A DNA stretch of 60,987 nt from an uncultured Bacilli bacterium (lineage in GTDB: Bacteria > Bacillota_I > Bacilli_A > RF39 > UBA660). Below the pieces are notes generated by a model. It was not told where the DNA came from, searched no databases, and saw only the letters and a program-made list of their open reading frames with translations. Where the stretch lies: positions 1 through 60,987 of the forward strand of contig CAKPIH010000002.1 in NCBI GenBank assembly GCA_934162325.1, read 5' to 3'. The position numbers and the translations under genes are program-made. This document shows, one piece after another, positions 6,736-49,825 of this stretch. Numbering within the stretch: position 1 is the stretch's first letter; every line of letters begins with the position of its first letter.

Positions 6736-7374
6736 TTAATGTTTAACACATTTACCAATTATCACTGGGCACTTATCGGGAAAAAAATCAAAATATTCAA
6801 ATTTAATGTTATAATTCGCAAAATTAGAGGTTTTAAACTTTAAGTAATTAATCCAATTTTTATAGTTATCAAATACTTTACCATCTTTTGAATTATGAAT
6901 GCATGGACATAAATATAAGATAAAATCTTTCTTATATTTATAACAATTATCAATAATATTTTCAGTAATATAACATGGTCTAATACCGATAATTAAATCA
7001 TATTTTGATAAATCATAAGGTTTATTTAAATCATATTCAATGGTGTTAATGCCTCTATAATTTTTGATTAATATTTTATTATTAATGGCATCAATATTAA
7101 TACCATTGTTTTTATATATTGCTGATAAAATAGGAATATAGCCACAAGCGACTTCTAATAAATTCATATTATCAATATCAAAATAAGCATTAACAACATT
7201 ATAAAAATCGAAATATACAGTTTTTTTAATGTCTATTAAATTTAAGTAACAATATATTTGATCTATATCACAGGTGTATCCGTAATTGCACTTTGATAAT
7301 CTATTGTTATGAAAATAATCTTCATAAAAAGTTTTATTTTTATATATAAAATTAATGACTTTTTTATTTGACAT
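6736..7374 (-). CDS. hypothetical Rossmann/methyltransferase-fold-like protein (UPF0146-like?)
   Basis: 212 aa. LLEVACGYIPILS resembles SAM-MTase motif I and DLIIGIRPC resembles the UPF0146 signature. Cys-rich. Divergent from the peptide/ThiF operon. Confidence 0.3.
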   Translation of the reverse strand: MSNKKVINFIYKNKTFYEDYFHNNRLSKCNYGYTCDIDQIYCYLNLIDIKKTVYFDFYNVVNAYFDIDNMNLLEVACGYIPILSAIYKNNGINIDAINNKILIKNYRGINTIEYDLNKPYDLSKYDLIIGIRPCYITENIIDNCYKYKKDFILYLCPCIHNSKDGKVFDNYKNWINYLKFKTSNFANYNIKFEYFDFFPDKCPVIIGKCVKH

Positions 7375-7533: not shown

Positions 7534-7562
7534 TTGACATTTTGAGGTAAATTTGATATAGT
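7534..7562 (+). promoter_or_regulatory. sigma-A type promoter of the small-ORF/ThiF-like/ABC-F operon
   Basis: TTGACA (7534-7539), 17-nt spacer, TATAGT (7557-7562). Confidence 0.65.
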
Positions 7563-7613
7563 ATGCTCAGAAAGCTTGTAAATAATGGCTTTCTAAGAAA
7601 GTGAGGATTAACA

Positions 7614-7679
7614 ATGAAATTTACTATTAGAAAAATTAATGATAATAAGTTTGAATGTCATGTTGATCAAAACTGCTAG
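7614..7679 (+). CDS. 21-aa peptide MKFTIRKINDNKFECHVDQNC, candidate precursor (or leader) peptide
   Basis: Below the ORF-track size cut-off. SD GTGAGGA lies 6 nt upstream of the ATG. It sits between a consensus promoter and a stem-loop, directly upstream of the E1-like gene. Confidence 0.5.
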   Translation: MKFTIRKINDNKFECHVDQNC

Positions 7680-7701
7680 TTATATTCTAAATTATAACTG
7701 A

Positions 7702-7730
7702 TTACAAAAGGCTTTTTAAGCCTTTTGTAA
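7702..7730 (+). promoter_or_regulatory. 13-bp perfect stem-loop between the small ORF and the ThiF-like gene
   Basis: TTACAAAAGGCTT-ttt-AAGCCTTTTGTAA with no downstream U-tract. Candidate attenuator or mRNA-stabilising structure. Confidence 0.6.
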
Positions 7731-7750
7731 AATTATAGGAGGATAAATGT

Positions 7751-8779
7751 ATGTTAATAATAAATCCACTAAAACCATTTTACAAAAATACTGAAGAAAA
7801 AATAATTAGAATGGGCAACTTTAAAGACACAGGAAAAGAAATTAATTATGAAGACGATAGTTTGATTAAATTGTTTGAAATTATAAGAAAACCAACTTCA
7901 AGAGAAAAAATAGTAGAAATCTTACAAGAAAATGACAAATTATCTTTAGAAGAAATAAATGAGGCACTGGATTATTTAATAAAAGAAAAATTTATAATAA
8001 AATATGAAGATTATAACAAAATAATTAATAGTGGAAAGTTTAATAGACAAAGTTTATTTTTTTCAATGGTAAGTGATGATTTAAAAGAATGGAGAGTTAA
8101 TAATGAAGTAAATATTTTAATATTAGGGATAGGTGGAGTAGGAGCTAATGTAGCTGTATTACTATCAAGAGCTGGATTCTCAAAACTTACATTAGTTGAT
8201 TATGATAAAGTAGAAGAGTCAAATCTTATCCGTCAAATTCCATATTCTATTAATGACATAGGAAAAAGTAAAACAGAAGCCATTGCTGAAAAGATTGACA
8301 GTAAAGAAATAAGTACTATCAATAAAGAAATATTAAAAGAATCGGATATAGAAAGTGAAATTGCTAATACCAGCTTTGTAATATGTACTTTAGATAAACC
8401 ATCTAGAGTTATCAGAAGAACTATTAATAAACTATGTGTTAAATACAACAAGCCTGTAATCTTTTCTGGTTTTGCCGAACATGTTGCAATGATAGGCCCC
8501 TTTATTATTCCTTCAAAAACGGCATGTTTAAAATGCATAGAAAGAGAAAGTAATAATGAACCATTGAATAATGTTACTATTACACCATCATATGGACCAC
8601 TATGTTTAATTATAGCCAGCATAGTATCAAATGAAGTAATTAACTATTTCTTTAAGTTTAAAAGTAGTAATTTAATAAATAAAACAATGATGTTTAATAT
8701 TTTATCTTATGAAACAAATATAATAAATTGGCAAAAGAAAAAAGATTGTGAGGTGTGTGGTAAAAATGATAGTAAATAA
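7751..8779 (+). CDS. E1-like ThiF/HesA/MoeB-family adenylyltransferase with N-terminal winged-helix (RRE/peptide-clamp-like) extension; MccB/PaaA-like
   Basis: SD AGGAGGA. Motifs FNRQSLFF, ILGIGGVGANVAVLLSRAGF and LVDYDKVEESNLIRQ. Two CxxC pairs (CLKC, CEVC). About 95-aa N-terminal extension (EKIVEILQENDKLSLEEINEALDYLIKEKFII). Confidence 0.75.
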   Translation: MLIINPLKPFYKNTEEKIIRMGNFKDTGKEINYEDDSLIKLFEIIRKPTSREKIVEILQENDKLSLEEINEALDYLIKEKFIIKYEDYNKIINSGKFNRQSLFFSMVSDDLKEWRVNNEVNILILGIGGVGANVAVLLSRAGFSKLTLVDYDKVEESNLIRQIPYSINDIGKSKTEAIAEKIDSKEISTINKEILKESDIESEIANTSFVICTLDKPSRVIRRTINKLCVKYNKPVIFSGFAEHVAMIGPFIIPSKTACLKCIERESNNEPLNNVTITPSYGPLCLIIASIVSNEVINYFFKFKSSNLINKTMMFNILSYETNIINWQKKKDCEVCGKNDSK

Positions 8780-10376
8780 TTTAAAAAAACAATTAAATGG
8801 TAAAGAGATACTCCAGGATATTTCATTTACACTATCGGATAAAGACAAAGTGGGTCTCGTGGGTGTAAACGGTTCAGGTAAATCAACACTCTTAAAAATT
8901 TTATCTGGAGAATTAGAAAAAGATTCCGGCACTATAAAATTAAATGAAGAAATTATTGGTTATTTAAAACAAGAAATTCCATATATATTTAATGATTTAT
9001 CCGTAATTGAATACCTAAAAAAAGAAACTAATATAGAAATATTGGAAAAAAAACTTCATGCATTAGAAGAAAATTTAACTGAAGAAAATATGGAGGAATA
9101 TGGTATTATACAAAGTCAATTTTTAGCAATTGATGGGTATATGTTTGAAGAAAACCTTACTAATATTTTACTAGGATTACACTTTAATAAATCATTAAGT
9201 TGTAAAATAGGTACTTTATCAGGAGGAGAGAAAATAAAAATTTTATTAGCGGCACTAATTCTAAAAAATAATGATATTATTTTACTTGATGAACCAACAA
9301 ATAACTTAGATATCGAAGCAATAGAATGGCTTGAAAATCATTTAAAACAATCAAGCAAAAAAATGATAATCATTTCACATGATGAAGTGTTTTTAAATAA
9401 TGTTGTAAACAAAATATTTGAACTAAAGGATGGTAAAATTAAAGAATACAATCTATCATATAAAGAATATCTAAAACAAAAAGAATATGAATATAATAGA
9501 GAAAAAGAGGAATATATAAAAGCTCAAGAAGAAAAAGAAAAATTAAAAAAGCAAGTACAAAAAGCAAAAGAGTGGGCAAGCAAAGGGACAAGTAAGAAAA
9601 ATAGAAGTGATAATGACAAGTTATCAAATAATTTTGCTATAGAAAGAACAAATACAAAAAATATATCAAAATTAACTAGAACTCTACAAAATTTAGAAAT
9701 TCCGGAGTTTGAAGAAAAGATACCTATAAAAGTATTTTTTACCTTTGATAATTCTAAAGGAAATAAAGATATAATTTTAGAAAATTTAATATGTGGCTAT
9801 CCAGATTTTAAAACACCAGAAATAAACCTAATTATTCCATTTGGAACAAGGGTTAGAATAACCGGCGGTAATGGTTCCGGAAAAACAACAGTAATAAAAA
9901 CAATTTTACACGAAATACAACCATTATCTGGAAACATAAAAATAGGAAATGATGTAAAAATTGGTTATATTTCTCAAAATACATTAAGTGCAAATACTGA
10001 AGAAAGTATTTATACTTATTTAACAAAAAACAATCCCAACATAGATAAATCACAAGTATTTATATTATTAGATAAATTTAATATTAGTTATGACGAAAAA
10101 GACAAGCCATATTCAATTCTATCTCCTGGAGAAAGAACAAGAATAAATCTAGTTAAATTGGCTTTAGAAAAAATAAATGTATTAATATTAGATGAGGTAA
10201 CAAACCATCTTGATAAAGAGGCACTAGATTTAATATACGAGTTAGTTGAAGGCTATGAAGGAACAATAATAAGTATTTCACATAACAGAAGATATAATGA
10301 ATATTTAGACGCTGATATTGAAGTAGATATAACAAATGGAAATATAAAACACAAAAGTTTAATTCGCCATAGATAA
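8766..10376 (+). CDS. ABC-F family ATPase (two ABC domains, no membrane domain)
   Basis: Walker A GVNGSGKS and GGNGSGKT. Signatures LSGGEK and LSPGER. Walker B ILLDEPTNNLD and LILDEVTNHLD. K/E-rich interdomain linker. ATG 8766 overlaps the ThiF-like stop by 14 nt (the ORF-track start 8748 is a GTG inside the SD). Confidence 0.85.
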   Translation: MIVNNLKKQLNGKEILQDISFTLSDKDKVGLVGVNGSGKSTLLKILSGELEKDSGTIKLNEEIIGYLKQEIPYIFNDLSVIEYLKKETNIEILEKKLHALEENLTEENMEEYGIIQSQFLAIDGYMFEENLTNILLGLHFNKSLSCKIGTLSGGEKIKILLAALILKNNDIILLDEPTNNLDIEAIEWLENHLKQSSKKMIIISHDEVFLNNVVNKIFELKDGKIKEYNLSYKEYLKQKEYEYNREKEEYIKAQEEKEKLKKQVQKAKEWASKGTSKKNRSDNDKLSNNFAIERTNTKNISKLTRTLQNLEIPEFEEKIPIKVFFTFDNSKGNKDIILENLICGYPDFKTPEINLIIPFGTRVRITGGNGSGKTTVIKTILHEIQPLSGNIKIGNDVKIGYISQNTLSANTEESIYTYLTKNNPNIDKSQVFILLDKFNISYDEKDKPYSILSPGERTRINLVKLALEKINVLILDEVTNHLDKEALDLIYELVEGYEGTIISISHNRRYNEYLDADIEVDITNGNIKHKSLIRHR

Positions 10377-12836: not shown

Positions 12837-13790
12837 ATGAAAAAAACACTATTAGGTTTTACCATAGTATTACTATTAATGACCATAGAAATACTAATAC
12901 TAAATAATGATATTATGATTTTAAATGCTTCAAATAAATTATTAGAAGAAGACCTAAAAGATAAGAAAGATATAAGTACTTTAAAAGAAGAAAAAGAAAC
13001 TTTAAATACCTCAGTATCTGACTTGCTCGCGGTCTCTACCTTCAGTGATGAAGATATAGAAGAAATAATGACTAGTGAAAAAACAATCTCTAAGGACCTT
13101 GAAGACAATATAACATCACTAGAAAATACCATCGTAGATTTAGAAGATAAACTATCAAGTCTTCAAAAAGAATACTATAAACTAGTCAAAGAAAATGCTG
13201 AAAAAAATAGTTTCTATATTTCAAATGTACCCTTTATCAATCAGTATCCCAACTATCCAACCGGTTGTGAATCAGTAGCCTTAACCATTCTTCTAAATTA
13301 CTATGGAGTAGCAGTAACTCCTGACAATATCATAAACAAATTACCAAAGGGAAGTGTTCCCGTAACAAAAAATGGCAAACTATATGGAGGCAATCCTGAA
13401 GTAGAGTTTATAGGTAATCCCTATAGTTTAAATGCTTACGGAGTATATGAAAAACCAATTGCTAATGTTGCTAGCCAATATAAAAGTGGTATCAAAATAG
13501 CAACAGGAACCAGTTTTGAAAAAATACTAGAAGTAGTAAAAACAGGAAAACCAGTTATGGTATGGACTTCCATGTATTTAGCAGTCCCTTATATATCACA
13601 GTCTTGGATATATGAACCAACAGGAGAAACAATTTACTGGAAGGCCAATGAACATGCTGTAGTAATAATAGGTTATACCGAAGATAAAGTTATAATATCA
13701 GACCCAATAGATGGTAAGGCCAAATATCAATCAAAAAGTATCTTCAAAGAAAGATATAACTATTATGGAAAGAAGGCGTTATATTACTAA
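12837..13790 (+). CDS. membrane-anchored peptidase C39-like (YvpB-like) protein with coiled-coil linker
   Basis: N-terminal TM helix and E/K-rich coiled coil. C-terminal INQYPNYPTGCESVA (Cys) and EHAVVIIGY (His) fit the C39_2 papain-like fold. Confidence 0.6.
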   Translation: MKKTLLGFTIVLLLMTIEILILNNDIMILNASNKLLEEDLKDKKDISTLKEEKETLNTSVSDLLAVSTFSDEDIEEIMTSEKTISKDLEDNITSLENTIVDLEDKLSSLQKEYYKLVKENAEKNSFYISNVPFINQYPNYPTGCESVALTILLNYYGVAVTPDNIINKLPKGSVPVTKNGKLYGGNPEVEFIGNPYSLNAYGVYEKPIANVASQYKSGIKIATGTSFEKILEVVKTGKPVMVWTSMYLAVPYISQSWIYEPTGETIYWKANEHAVVIIGYTEDKVIISDPIDGKAKYQSKSIFKERYNYYGKKALYY

Positions 13791-49341: not shown

Positions 49342-49471
49342 TAAAACAATTGACAAAAGTAAAAAAATGAGATGTGGGTGTGAGTTTTTGTCGTGCCTAC
49401 ATCTCTATATATAAATAGAAGTTATATGGATGCAATATATTCATATAACTTTTTTTGATGGGAGGAATACT

Positions 49472-49825
49472 ATGATAGATATAAATATAAGTAAAGTATG
49501 TAAGTCATTTGGTTTTGACTTAGTATTAAATAATATAGATATAACAGTACAAAAAGGAGAAAAAGTAAGATTAAAAATATTCTGTCTAATTCAAGATTCT
49601 TATAACTTCTTAATCCTAGATGAACCCACTAATCACATTGATATTGATACAAGAGAAATGCTTGAAGAGTCACTAAAGGAGTTTACTGGTACTATATTAT
49701 TTGTATCTCATGACAGATATTTCATAAATAAAATAGCTACTAGTATAATAGAAATAAAAAATAAAAACATCACTAAATATATTGGTAATTATGATGATTA
49801 TCGTGAGAAAATAAACAAAATATGA
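49472..49825 (+). pseudogene. ABC-F/ABC ATPase remnant with internal deletion and C-terminal truncation
   Basis: The reading frame joins the pre-Walker-A strand (ITVQKGEKV) directly to the Walker B region (LILDEPTNHID, FVSHDRYF). Walker A, Q-loop, signature and the second ABC domain are absent. Confidence 0.6.

Follow-up and report, generated by a model that had tools for sequence, protein, structure and literature searches.

The stretch of DNA analysed here, called the window throughout, covers 60,987 nt of contig CAKPIH010000002.1 (assembly GCA_934162325.1) from an uncultured Bacilli bacterium of the RF39 group. It is AT-rich (26.7% GC) and carries, between positions 7534 and 10,376, a compact module in which a promoter is followed by a 21-codon open reading frame (ORF), a hairpin, a gene for an E1-like adenylyltransferase and a gene for an ABC-F ATPase. 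The features of the module, all on the forward strand, are as follows.

7534–7562, forward strand: sigma-70-type promoter composed of TTGACA (7534–7539), a 17-nt spacer and a TG-extended TATAGT (7557–7562), matching the consensus at 11 of 12 positions
7569–7594, forward strand: 5′-terminal stem-loop of the transcript, AGAAAGC...GCUUUCU, with a minimum free energy (MFE) of −8.6 kcal/mol and z = −3.1
7601–7607, forward strand: Shine–Dalgarno (SD) sequence of the precursor ORF, GTGAGGA, 6 nt 5′ of its ATG, read from the sequence
7614–7679, forward strand: precursor gene of 21 codons, MKFTIRKINDNKFECHVDQNC, identified as a conserved short ORF
7702–7730, forward strand: 13-bp stem-loop between the precursor and E1 genes (arms 7702–7714 and 7718–7730), a conserved hairpin and likely a leaky intrinsic terminator
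7737–7743, forward strand: SD sequence of the E1 gene, AGGAGGA, 7 nt 5′ of the ATG at 7751, read from the sequence
7751–8779, forward strand: MccB-like ThiF/E1 adenylyltransferase of 342 aa with an N-terminal peptide-clamp (RRE-like) domain, assigned by Pfam, PDB profile search, AlphaFold2 (AF2) and Foldseek
8766–10,376, forward strand: ABC-F ATPase of 536 aa, coupled to the E1 gene by a 14-nt overlap, assigned by Pfam, NF000355 and synteny

The reading favoured by the evidence, although by a modest balance of probability, is that of a self-contained operon of the kind that makes peptides synthesized by the ribosome and modified post-translationally (RiPPs). It would represent an undescribed subclass of the RRE-fused ThiF-like (TLAT) systems, with a product that may target translation and an ABC-F protein that may serve for self-protection.

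Conservation of the short ORF has been followed at 30 genome or assembly loci that contain it and at 32 further metagenome loci obtained from a peptide-motif scan alone. The ORF lies 5′ of every intact homologous E1 gene (>55 loci). Every genome locus with upstream DNA has one such ORF; a GGAGG-type SD precedes nearly all of them, a few having a weaker one, and the encoded peptide is exactly 21 residues long at 28 of the 30 loci. The consensus precursor, M-K-[FI]-x-[VI]-[KR]-K-[LIV]-x-x-x-K-F-[AES]-C-H-V-D-Q-N-C-stop, comprises a basic leader (M-K-[FI]-x-[VI]-[KR]-K-[LIV]-x3-K-F) and a core, C-H-V-D-Q-[N/H]-C, that ends at the stop codon. In 26 distinct nucleotide versions the last seven residues change four times in total, with one replacement of Q by E and three of N by H, and the third positions are mixed: TGT/TGC 19:7, CAT/CAC 14:12, GTT/GTA 18:8, AAC/AAT 13:10 and TGC/TGT 14:12. 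Retention of the core residues while their third positions vary points to selection on the peptide and not on the RNA. Cys15, Asp18 and Cys21 are invariant, Cys being the terminal residue in every precursor seen (>55 loci); position 20 is mostly N, with H in several lineages, including locus L044. The core is kept where the identity of E1 falls to 44–46%. The scan of metagenome contigs, which used the core-coding motif alone, leads to the same pair of genes, since an E1 homologue comes next at 31 of the 31 loci having downstream DNA, at a distance of 45–120 nt. The first-pass annotation, made from the letters of the window, had proposed an SD sequence followed by a 21-codon ORF whose peptide ends in Asn-Cys and not in Asn; both the gene and its C-terminal Cys are borne out at all syntenic loci, with the C-terminus under protein-level selection. 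An overlapping ORF in the +2 frame (7639–7701, MIISLNVMLIKTASYILNYN), which resembles MccA in ending in Asn, lacks both an SD and conservation at other loci, and is regarded as a chance ORF.

Homologues of the E1 enzyme fall into more than 160 clusters, nearly all of those listed being full length, and almost all originate from metagenome-assembled genomes (MAGs) of uncultured gut ‘Bacilli’, ‘Tenericutes’ and RF39-like organisms of human, rabbit and ruminant origin. Pfam recognizes a ThiF domain at residues 118–334 (9.5e-44) and calls no other domain in the protein. The motifs GIGGVGANVA, DYDKVEESNLIRQ, CLKC and CEVC are present, and the family as a whole preserves the loop G126-x-G128-G129-x-G131, the residues R161, K174 and D215, and the four cysteines C259, C262, C333 and C336. 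R161, K174 and D215 are spaced like the triad of Arg, Lys and Asp that is reported for EnfB and MccB. Given the intact G-loop, Arg/Lys/Asp residues and CxxC pairs, the protein should be an active adenylating enzyme and not a docking scaffold. A family profile searched against the PDB scores 162 bits with MccB (1.3e-46, the match beginning at residue 58), 95 with MoeB, 88 with PaaA and 53 with TcdA. The AF2 model (pLDDT 90.4) superposes in Foldseek over its full length on MccB (TM 0.77) and on PaaA (TM 0.72), over about 360 columns, while ThiF, MoeB and UBA5 cover the C-terminal two thirds only. Full-length superposition indicates that the first ∼100 residues correspond to the peptide clamp of RiPP enzymes; Pfam itself gives weak, sub-threshold winged-helix matches there. 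The E1 signature that had been noticed in the C-terminal two thirds is thereby confirmed, the guess that the first ∼95 residues form a winged-helix-like peptide-binding domain agrees with the modelled fold, and both the profile search and Foldseek group the enzyme with MccB and PaaA, and not with ThiF, MoeB or TcdA. That the short gene and the clamp-bearing adenylating enzyme work as a precursor–enzyme pair can be stated with high confidence, and the fixed 21-residue length together with the virtually invariant last seven residues would fit a substrate that spans clamp and active site.

Two other identities of the E1 protein have been considered and rejected. As a SagC-type docking protein of a YcaO cyclodehydratase it scores 46 bits with TIGR03603 against a cutoff of 188, its ATP site is intact, and neighbour clustering finds no YcaO near the module. 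As an E1-E2 defence enzyme, like Cap2 of the cyclic oligonucleotide-based antiphage signalling system (CBASS), it gives PADLOC E1-E2 matches of at most 59 bits that are confined to the adenylation core, with no E2 region matched.

The ABC-F gene is the constant partner of this pair. Its start is given as GTG 8748 in the ORF list; all homologues align from ATG 8766, and the 14-nt overlap with the E1 stop that had been seen earlier is confirmed at that position. The protein has two ABC_tran domains and an ABC_tran_Xtn domain, with no membrane domain found by Pfam. It passes the model for ribosomal protection-like ABC-F proteins (NF000355, 388.7 bits against a cutoff of 380) and stays below the cutoffs of the named antibiotic resistance (ARE) families (CplR 294 against 780, Vga 254 against 725, producer type 233 against 800). 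Its similarities in the PDB are to YbiT (231 bits), a housekeeping protein, and to the resistance proteins VmlR (213) and PoxtA (204); with YbiT and PoxtA it can be aligned over the entire length. It contains an arm-like insertion, and its interdomain linker exceeds that of YbiT by ∼20 aa and falls short of that of VmlR by ∼12 aa. Wherever genome loci have downstream DNA, the ABC-F gene stands directly 3′ of E1 (29/29), which answers in the affirmative the earlier question of whether the two co-occur. The two genes overlap at all 26 intact loci, by 4–35 nt and in 17 cases by 14 nt, and the distance matrices of the two proteins are strongly correlated (r = 0.88, Mantel 0/2000). Overlap at every intact locus and co-divergence, while the flanking genes vary, imply that E1 and ABC-F are inherited and translated as a unit. 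Elsewhere in the window, similarity to the ABC-F protein is found only at 49,421–49,780, where it is weak (30–34% over ∼100 aa), so that no second ABC-F of this clade exists within the 61 kb. At locus L049 (1245–1925) the gene 3′ of E1 starts like an ABC-F gene and becomes FtsE-like just past Walker A; the contig has 3.3× coverage and this chimera is probably an assembly artefact.

Partial losses of the module are also informative. Orthologues of the ABC-F protein with 60–67% identity occur without E1, and one such group is nested among E1-linked groups. In four of five E1-less lineages, the final part of E1 can still be read from the 25–40 nt that precede the ABC-F start, as 8–13 relic codons giving the peptides NDCEVCGNDSK, KCKVCGLNDSK, KRNDCEVC and KCEVCSK, in which the second CxxC is included. 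The relic sites, each 5′ of the start of an E1-less ABC-F gene, are:

L034, 3960–4000
L037, 2965–3000
L038, 2960–3000
L039, 2965–3000

One unlinked ABC-F copy is 90.5% identical to an E1-linked copy and has the same neighbouring genes. These relics and this copy indicate secondary loss of E1. The first-pass annotation had held that an ABC-F gene found at this position in relatives without E1 would be a plain housekeeping neighbour; such relatives do exist, but the interpretation as an unrelated neighbour does not stand, in view of the relics and of the 90.5%-identical copy. No short ORF at all accompanies the ABC-F copies that lack E1. Decay can be seen at other loci: E1 is truncated or frameshifted and ABC-F intact at L024 (5581–6732) and L030, the former through a deletion that runs from inside a 212-aa gene, described below, across the short ORF into the N-terminal part of E1, and at L023 (5881–8503) the whole module is decaying, with the short ORF reduced by an in-frame deletion to MKFACHVDQNC and both E1 and ABC-F fragmented. 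The converse, a credible E1 without ABC-F, has not been found in this subfamily. A candidate at L071 was rejected, as it lies on a 2.5-kb contig of 1.8× coverage and the same E1 cluster is accompanied by ABC-F at the three long-contig places shown, of 24 contigs. An E1 never found without ABC-F, and an ABC-F that survives alone, match what is expected where a toxin-making gene is paired with an immunity gene and where immunity genes have become orphans. The E1-less orthologue P0210 (L032, 3143–9608) has no E1 relic; it has a gene of the rRNA adenine dimethylase family on one side and, on the other, a divergent gene for a TetR regulator, with an MMPL transporter next to that.

The signals that surround the precursor gene are conserved to various degrees. 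Promoter-like matches are not enriched in window DNA of 27% GC (41 found, 34 expected), and a near-consensus promoter (9–12 of 12 matches) is located 37–68 nt 5′ of the short ORF at most homologous loci, so that the consensus promoter reported earlier keeps a similar distance in most relatives. A stem-loop lies within a few nucleotides of the predicted +1 in most, not all, homologous loci, often with GAAAG/CUUUC arms, and may act as an mRNA stabilizer. All 29 distinct loci carry a hairpin downstream of the short ORF, at 0 to 17 nt from the stop codon; the stem sequences have fully diverged while stability is kept, with a median MFE of −15.8 kcal/mol over 60 nt and a median z of −4.4. In the window the stem is built of an A-tract, a GC core and a U-tract (ACAAAAGGCUU...AAGCCUUUUGU), and many homologues have a U run directly 3′ of it. 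The perfect 13-bp stem seen at first thus stands, while the statement that it lacks a U-tract is corrected by its U-rich 3′ arm and by the U runs of many relatives. A strict terminator scan calls nothing at the window hairpin, and Rfam returns nothing significant for either the leader stem-loop or the intergenic hairpin. The U-rich arm and the U runs of homologues lead to its reading as a leaky intrinsic terminator, which would probably set the precursor-to-enzyme ratio. A functional hairpin has been demonstrated experimentally between mccA and mccB, where a short precursor transcript is abundant and read-through is rare (PMC4231749). The SD of the E1 gene lies outside the hairpin and is not sequestered by it.

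Genomic surroundings of the module are ordinary in the window, where it is flanked by genes for TsaD, a cell-wall amidase, PcrA and a C39_2-like peptidase, and they vary between loci. The neighbour clustering, which covered 31 genome loci, shows that gene order is not kept. The Peptidase_C39_2-like protein (317 aa, 12,837–13,790), two genes 3′ of ABC-F and beyond pcrA, was considered as a leader peptidase; it has no homologue near any other locus and is probably unrelated. An origin from a mobile element was likewise rejected, since plasmid matches reach at most 27% identity, mostly with mcc plasmids, and no close phage match exists. One additional gene accompanies the module in part of its distribution:

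6736–7374, reverse strand: optional accessory gene for a 212-aa protein of class-I methyltransferase fold with invariant Cys residues, assigned by AF2, Foldseek and synteny

The 212-aa protein has no Pfam or NCBIfam match and 35 homologue clusters in all. Its AF2 model (pLDDT 96) includes a motif-I-like LEVxCGYIPILS, and Foldseek gives weak and scattered matches to S-adenosylmethionine-dependent methyltransferases acting on rRNA, natural products or small molecules (TM ∼0.45–0.57). The gene adjoins the module in about one-third of the loci, either divergent upstream or convergent downstream, and all checked homologues of at least 46% identity adjoin an E1/ABC-F pair. The earlier suggestion that it could belong to the locus is upheld by synteny, as an optional member. 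The protein may serve to tailor the product, or else provide a second resistance function.

The same core is found in a sister family, whose members (L076, 6660–8348; L053; L062, on the reverse strand) have 24-aa precursors, MIKSVKKVKAINDTPLLCHVDQNC and MIKNIKKMTKEEAIAVTCHVDQNC, and E1 proteins that are 30–38% identical. At L076 an MFS transporter, an ArsR-type regulator and oligoendopeptidase F are encoded upstream, and a hydrophobic ORF that is not an ABC-F gene overlaps the E1 stop; at L062, MobC-like and relaxase-like genes, named from their translations only, are located upstream.

A mechanism can be proposed for the RiPP-type operon, in which we infer, and have not observed, the outcome of the reaction, the target in translation, the immunity role and the termination. 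The strong promoter would drive the 21-residue precursor, and the leaky hairpin behind the precursor gene would keep its transcript abundant while letting less transcript into the E1 and ABC-F genes. The N-terminal clamp of the MccB-like enzyme would hold the basic leader (residues ∼1–13), and the enzyme would spend ATP on adenylating a carboxylate in CHVDQNC, which could be the C-terminal one of Cys21 (the case of MccB, EnfB and IndF) or that of the Asp18 side chain (the case of GrcB). The adenylate would then be captured by an internal nucleophile, most plausibly the thiol of an invariant Cys, to give a thiolactone macrocycle (−18 Da). Activation of the Cys21 α-carboxylate or of the Asp18 side chain with capture by a Cys thiol is put forward tentatively, by analogy with the GrcB precedent and with work on thioesterification by MccB, and in view of the invariance of C15, D18 and C21; its probability is somewhat below even. 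In some lineages the methyltransferase-fold protein may tailor the product. The ABC-F protein, co-translated with the enzyme, would shield the ribosomes of the producer from the product, and relatives that lack the peptide and enzyme would retain it as an orphan resistance gene. An action of the product on the ribosome with protection by ABC-F, suggested by the linkage, the asymmetry of loss and the family assignment, is about as probable as its negation, or slightly less so. Full-length modified peptides have been argued to be the active forms of microcin C and enterofaecin, and by analogy the same may hold here.

Several observations weigh against this interpretation. Neighbour clustering of the genome loci reveals no conserved exporter, leader peptidase or other protease, uptake gene or regulator, and the lack of a conserved exporter, peptidase or uptake gene leaves the route of a toxin out of the cell unexplained. 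The ABC-F protein appears, from its sequence scores, about equally close to housekeeping and to resistance members, barely above the NF000355 cutoff. In the sister family, the 489 nt available downstream of E1 contain no ABC-F gene. Variation of position 20 between N and H means that the nucleophile is not assignable. As to the history of losses, the relic codons overlap the SD of ABC-F itself, so that their conservation could be partly functional instead of historical, and a generally useful translation factor would likewise be kept after loss of E1.

Points of this kind sustain the best of the rival explanations, in which the peptide and E1 form a RiPP pair that makes a signal, such as a thiolactone pheromone like the autoinducing peptides (AIPs), or a metal-binding peptide, and in which ABC-F is an ordinary translation factor, the pair having been inserted upstream of it by chance and then co-inherited. 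Thiolactone and TLAT peptides of streptococci and enterococci have been proposed as quorum signals, the core is rich in the potential metal ligands C, H, D and C, the ABC-F gene persists without E1 and has YbiT as its closest PDB relative, and the same-core sister family has no obvious ABC-F. A chance insertion accounts less readily for an E1/ABC-F junction that is kept in every locus, even where E1 identity falls to 44–46%, despite a gene order that is otherwise not conserved, or for an optional methyltransferase-fold gene that accompanies the pair in two orientations; neighbour clustering also finds no receptor kinase or regulator conserved beside the module. This explanation is considered unlikely, though less so than the other rivals.

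A second alternative, of rather low probability, keeps the antagonism between product and ABC-F and places it inside the cell. The module would be an addiction-like translation switch in which a cyclic or activated peptide made by E1 hits the cell's own ribosome, or is joined through its activated C-terminus to a ribosomal or ABC-F target, with ABC-F as the obligatory antagonist. Such a switch would explain why an exporter or peptidase is never present, why E1 is never found without ABC-F and why the antidote survives alone.

The relationship of the enzyme to MccB raises the question of a true Trojan-horse peptide-nucleotide of the microcin C type, in which the C-terminal Cys would be removed or bypassed and Asn20 would carry an N-P-linked nucleotide. 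Among solved relatives MccB is indeed the nearest, by sequence as well as by structure, most precursors have Asn in the penultimate position, and the terminator layout is mccA-like. Set against these similarities are the terminal Cys of all precursors, the His found at position 20 in several lineages, an identity of only ∼24–27% between E1 and MccB-type enzymes, and the absence, among recurring neighbours of the 31 genome loci, of any carboxypeptidase, MccC-type exporter or MccE/MccF-type immunity gene. The clustering thus extends to the relatives the earlier remark that no YcaO, exporter or MccE/MccF immunity gene lies nearby, and a microcin C-type product is very improbable.

The order of a short ORF, a terminator-like hairpin and a ribosomal protection-type ABC-F gene is also that of regulatory leader peptides, where ribosome stalling relieves a terminator and induces a resistance ABC-F, as for msrD or vmlR, the peptide being no enzyme substrate; such control is described as frequent for resistance ABC-F genes (PMC10314930). 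Against a leader peptide, a clamp-bearing MccB-like E1 always comes after the short ORF, even in sister loci showing no ABC-F, and the ABC-F copies without E1 have no short ORF. The variable distance between stop codon and hairpin, the E1 SD free of the hairpin, and the constant length and C-terminus, which fit a substrate reaching from clamp to active site, make this explanation still more improbable. The weakest rival, a housekeeping sulfur-carrier or tRNA-modification enzyme (ThiF, MoeB, TcdA) next to a spurious short ORF, is effectively refuted, since the ThiF and MoeB models that top the NCBIfam listing all score far below their cutoffs (e.g. 95 bits against 275), in the profile search against the PDB MccB surpasses MoeB by 67 bits, conservation extends to the N-terminal clamp, neighbour clustering finds no ThiS or MoaD gene adjoining E1, and the short ORF is under strong purifying selection.

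If the interpretation as a RiPP-type operon with ABC-F self-protection is correct, this would be the first producer–immunity pair of a RiPP and an ABC-F protein in the literature searched, in which no RiPP cluster with an ABC-F partner, no paper with both ThiF and ABC-F (or ABCF) and none with the motif CHVDQNC was found. The obligatory ABC-F partner predicts a ribosome-acting product with ABC-F as the resistance factor; an otherwise orphan ABC-F clade would acquire a natural ligand, and the gut communities of humans and animals would offer an example of resistance-type ABC-F genes that spread as orphan immunity genes. MAGs of this kind are for the most part left out of RefSeq. With uncultured gut Bacilli as the host group, mining based on RefSeq would largely miss the subclass, and the published global mining of TLAT enzymes is based on RefSeq.

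RRE-fused ThiF-like enzymes are an already known kind, an established though young and still growing RiPP family with five characterized outcomes of carboxylate activation: MccB makes a phosphoramidate, PaaA a bicyclic core, GrcB a Glu-to-C-terminal-Cys thiolactone, EnfB a cyclic imide and IndF an indolylamide. The microcin C system (MccA/MccB) provides the closest solved enzyme relative over the full length, including the clamp, with the same ATP/Mg residues and Zn-binding Cys tetrad, and it shares the tiny precursor gene in first position, the terminator hairpin before the enzyme gene and a cluster without leader peptidase. It differs in the obligatory terminal Asn, which becomes the N-P-linked isoAsn of microcin C, where the precursors here end in Cys, and in its MccC exporter, MccD/E tailoring and MccE/F immunity proteins, none of which is found here, where ABC-F is the fixed partner. 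Pantocin A (PaaP/PaaA) depends on an EEN motif that no precursor here contains, and its oxidase, PaaB, has no conserved counterpart near the module in the neighbour clustering. Without a terminal Asn and an EEN motif, the module belongs to neither the microcin C nor the pantocin type.

Among the systems of Gram-positive bacteria, GRC of Streptococcus pneumoniae (GrcA/GrcB) also combines an RRE-ThiF enzyme with a precursor that ends in Cys and has an acidic residue a few positions upstream, and its product is a thiolactone between the acidic carboxylate and the C-terminal Cys. GrcA has 39 aa with Glu35 and Cys39 (Glu at −4), in contrast to 21 aa with Asp18 and Cys21 (Asp at −3) here, GrcB being compared by description only. 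The GRC cluster further encodes a pair of radical-SAM enzymes, an RRE standing alone, a transporter and regulators of quorum sensing; counterparts of these are absent from the window and not conserved at related loci. In the enterofaecin system (EnfA/EnfB), which has no leader peptidase in its cluster, the EnfB substrate EnfA likewise has 21 residues, and its short basic leader motif, (V/I)RKA, is comparable to [VI]-[KR]-K-[LIV] here. EnfB and IndF, both from Lactobacillales, activate the C-terminal carboxylate with one ATP, after which intramolecular cyclization takes place; the window E1 is 27% identical to IndF of the IndA/IndF system, an approximate value because the IndF sequence has gaps from optical character recognition (OCR). 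The hydrophobic Trp cores of these peptides (WWIVI, NWYFI; xWxxx) differ from CHVDQNC, which has no Trp, and their clusters include ABC or other transporters and regulators that are not seen here, EnfB again being compared by description only.

Finally, the ABC-F protein resembles ARE-type members, including the producer copies OleB, CarA and LmrC, in its twin nucleotide-binding domains, its interdomain linker, its lack of a membrane domain and its NF000355 score, and it is placed inside an apparent biosynthetic operon, as is reported for antibiotic producers (PMC8546547); it departs from them in reaching no named resistance-family cutoff and in having the housekeeping YbiT as its top PDB similarity. 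An invariant Cys/His/Asp core with Cys as its last residue sets the subclass apart from the described TLAT members, none of which has one. As judged from its genes, the module is a member of the broad TLAT kind of RiPP system that departs from each described subclass in the features by which that subclass is defined.

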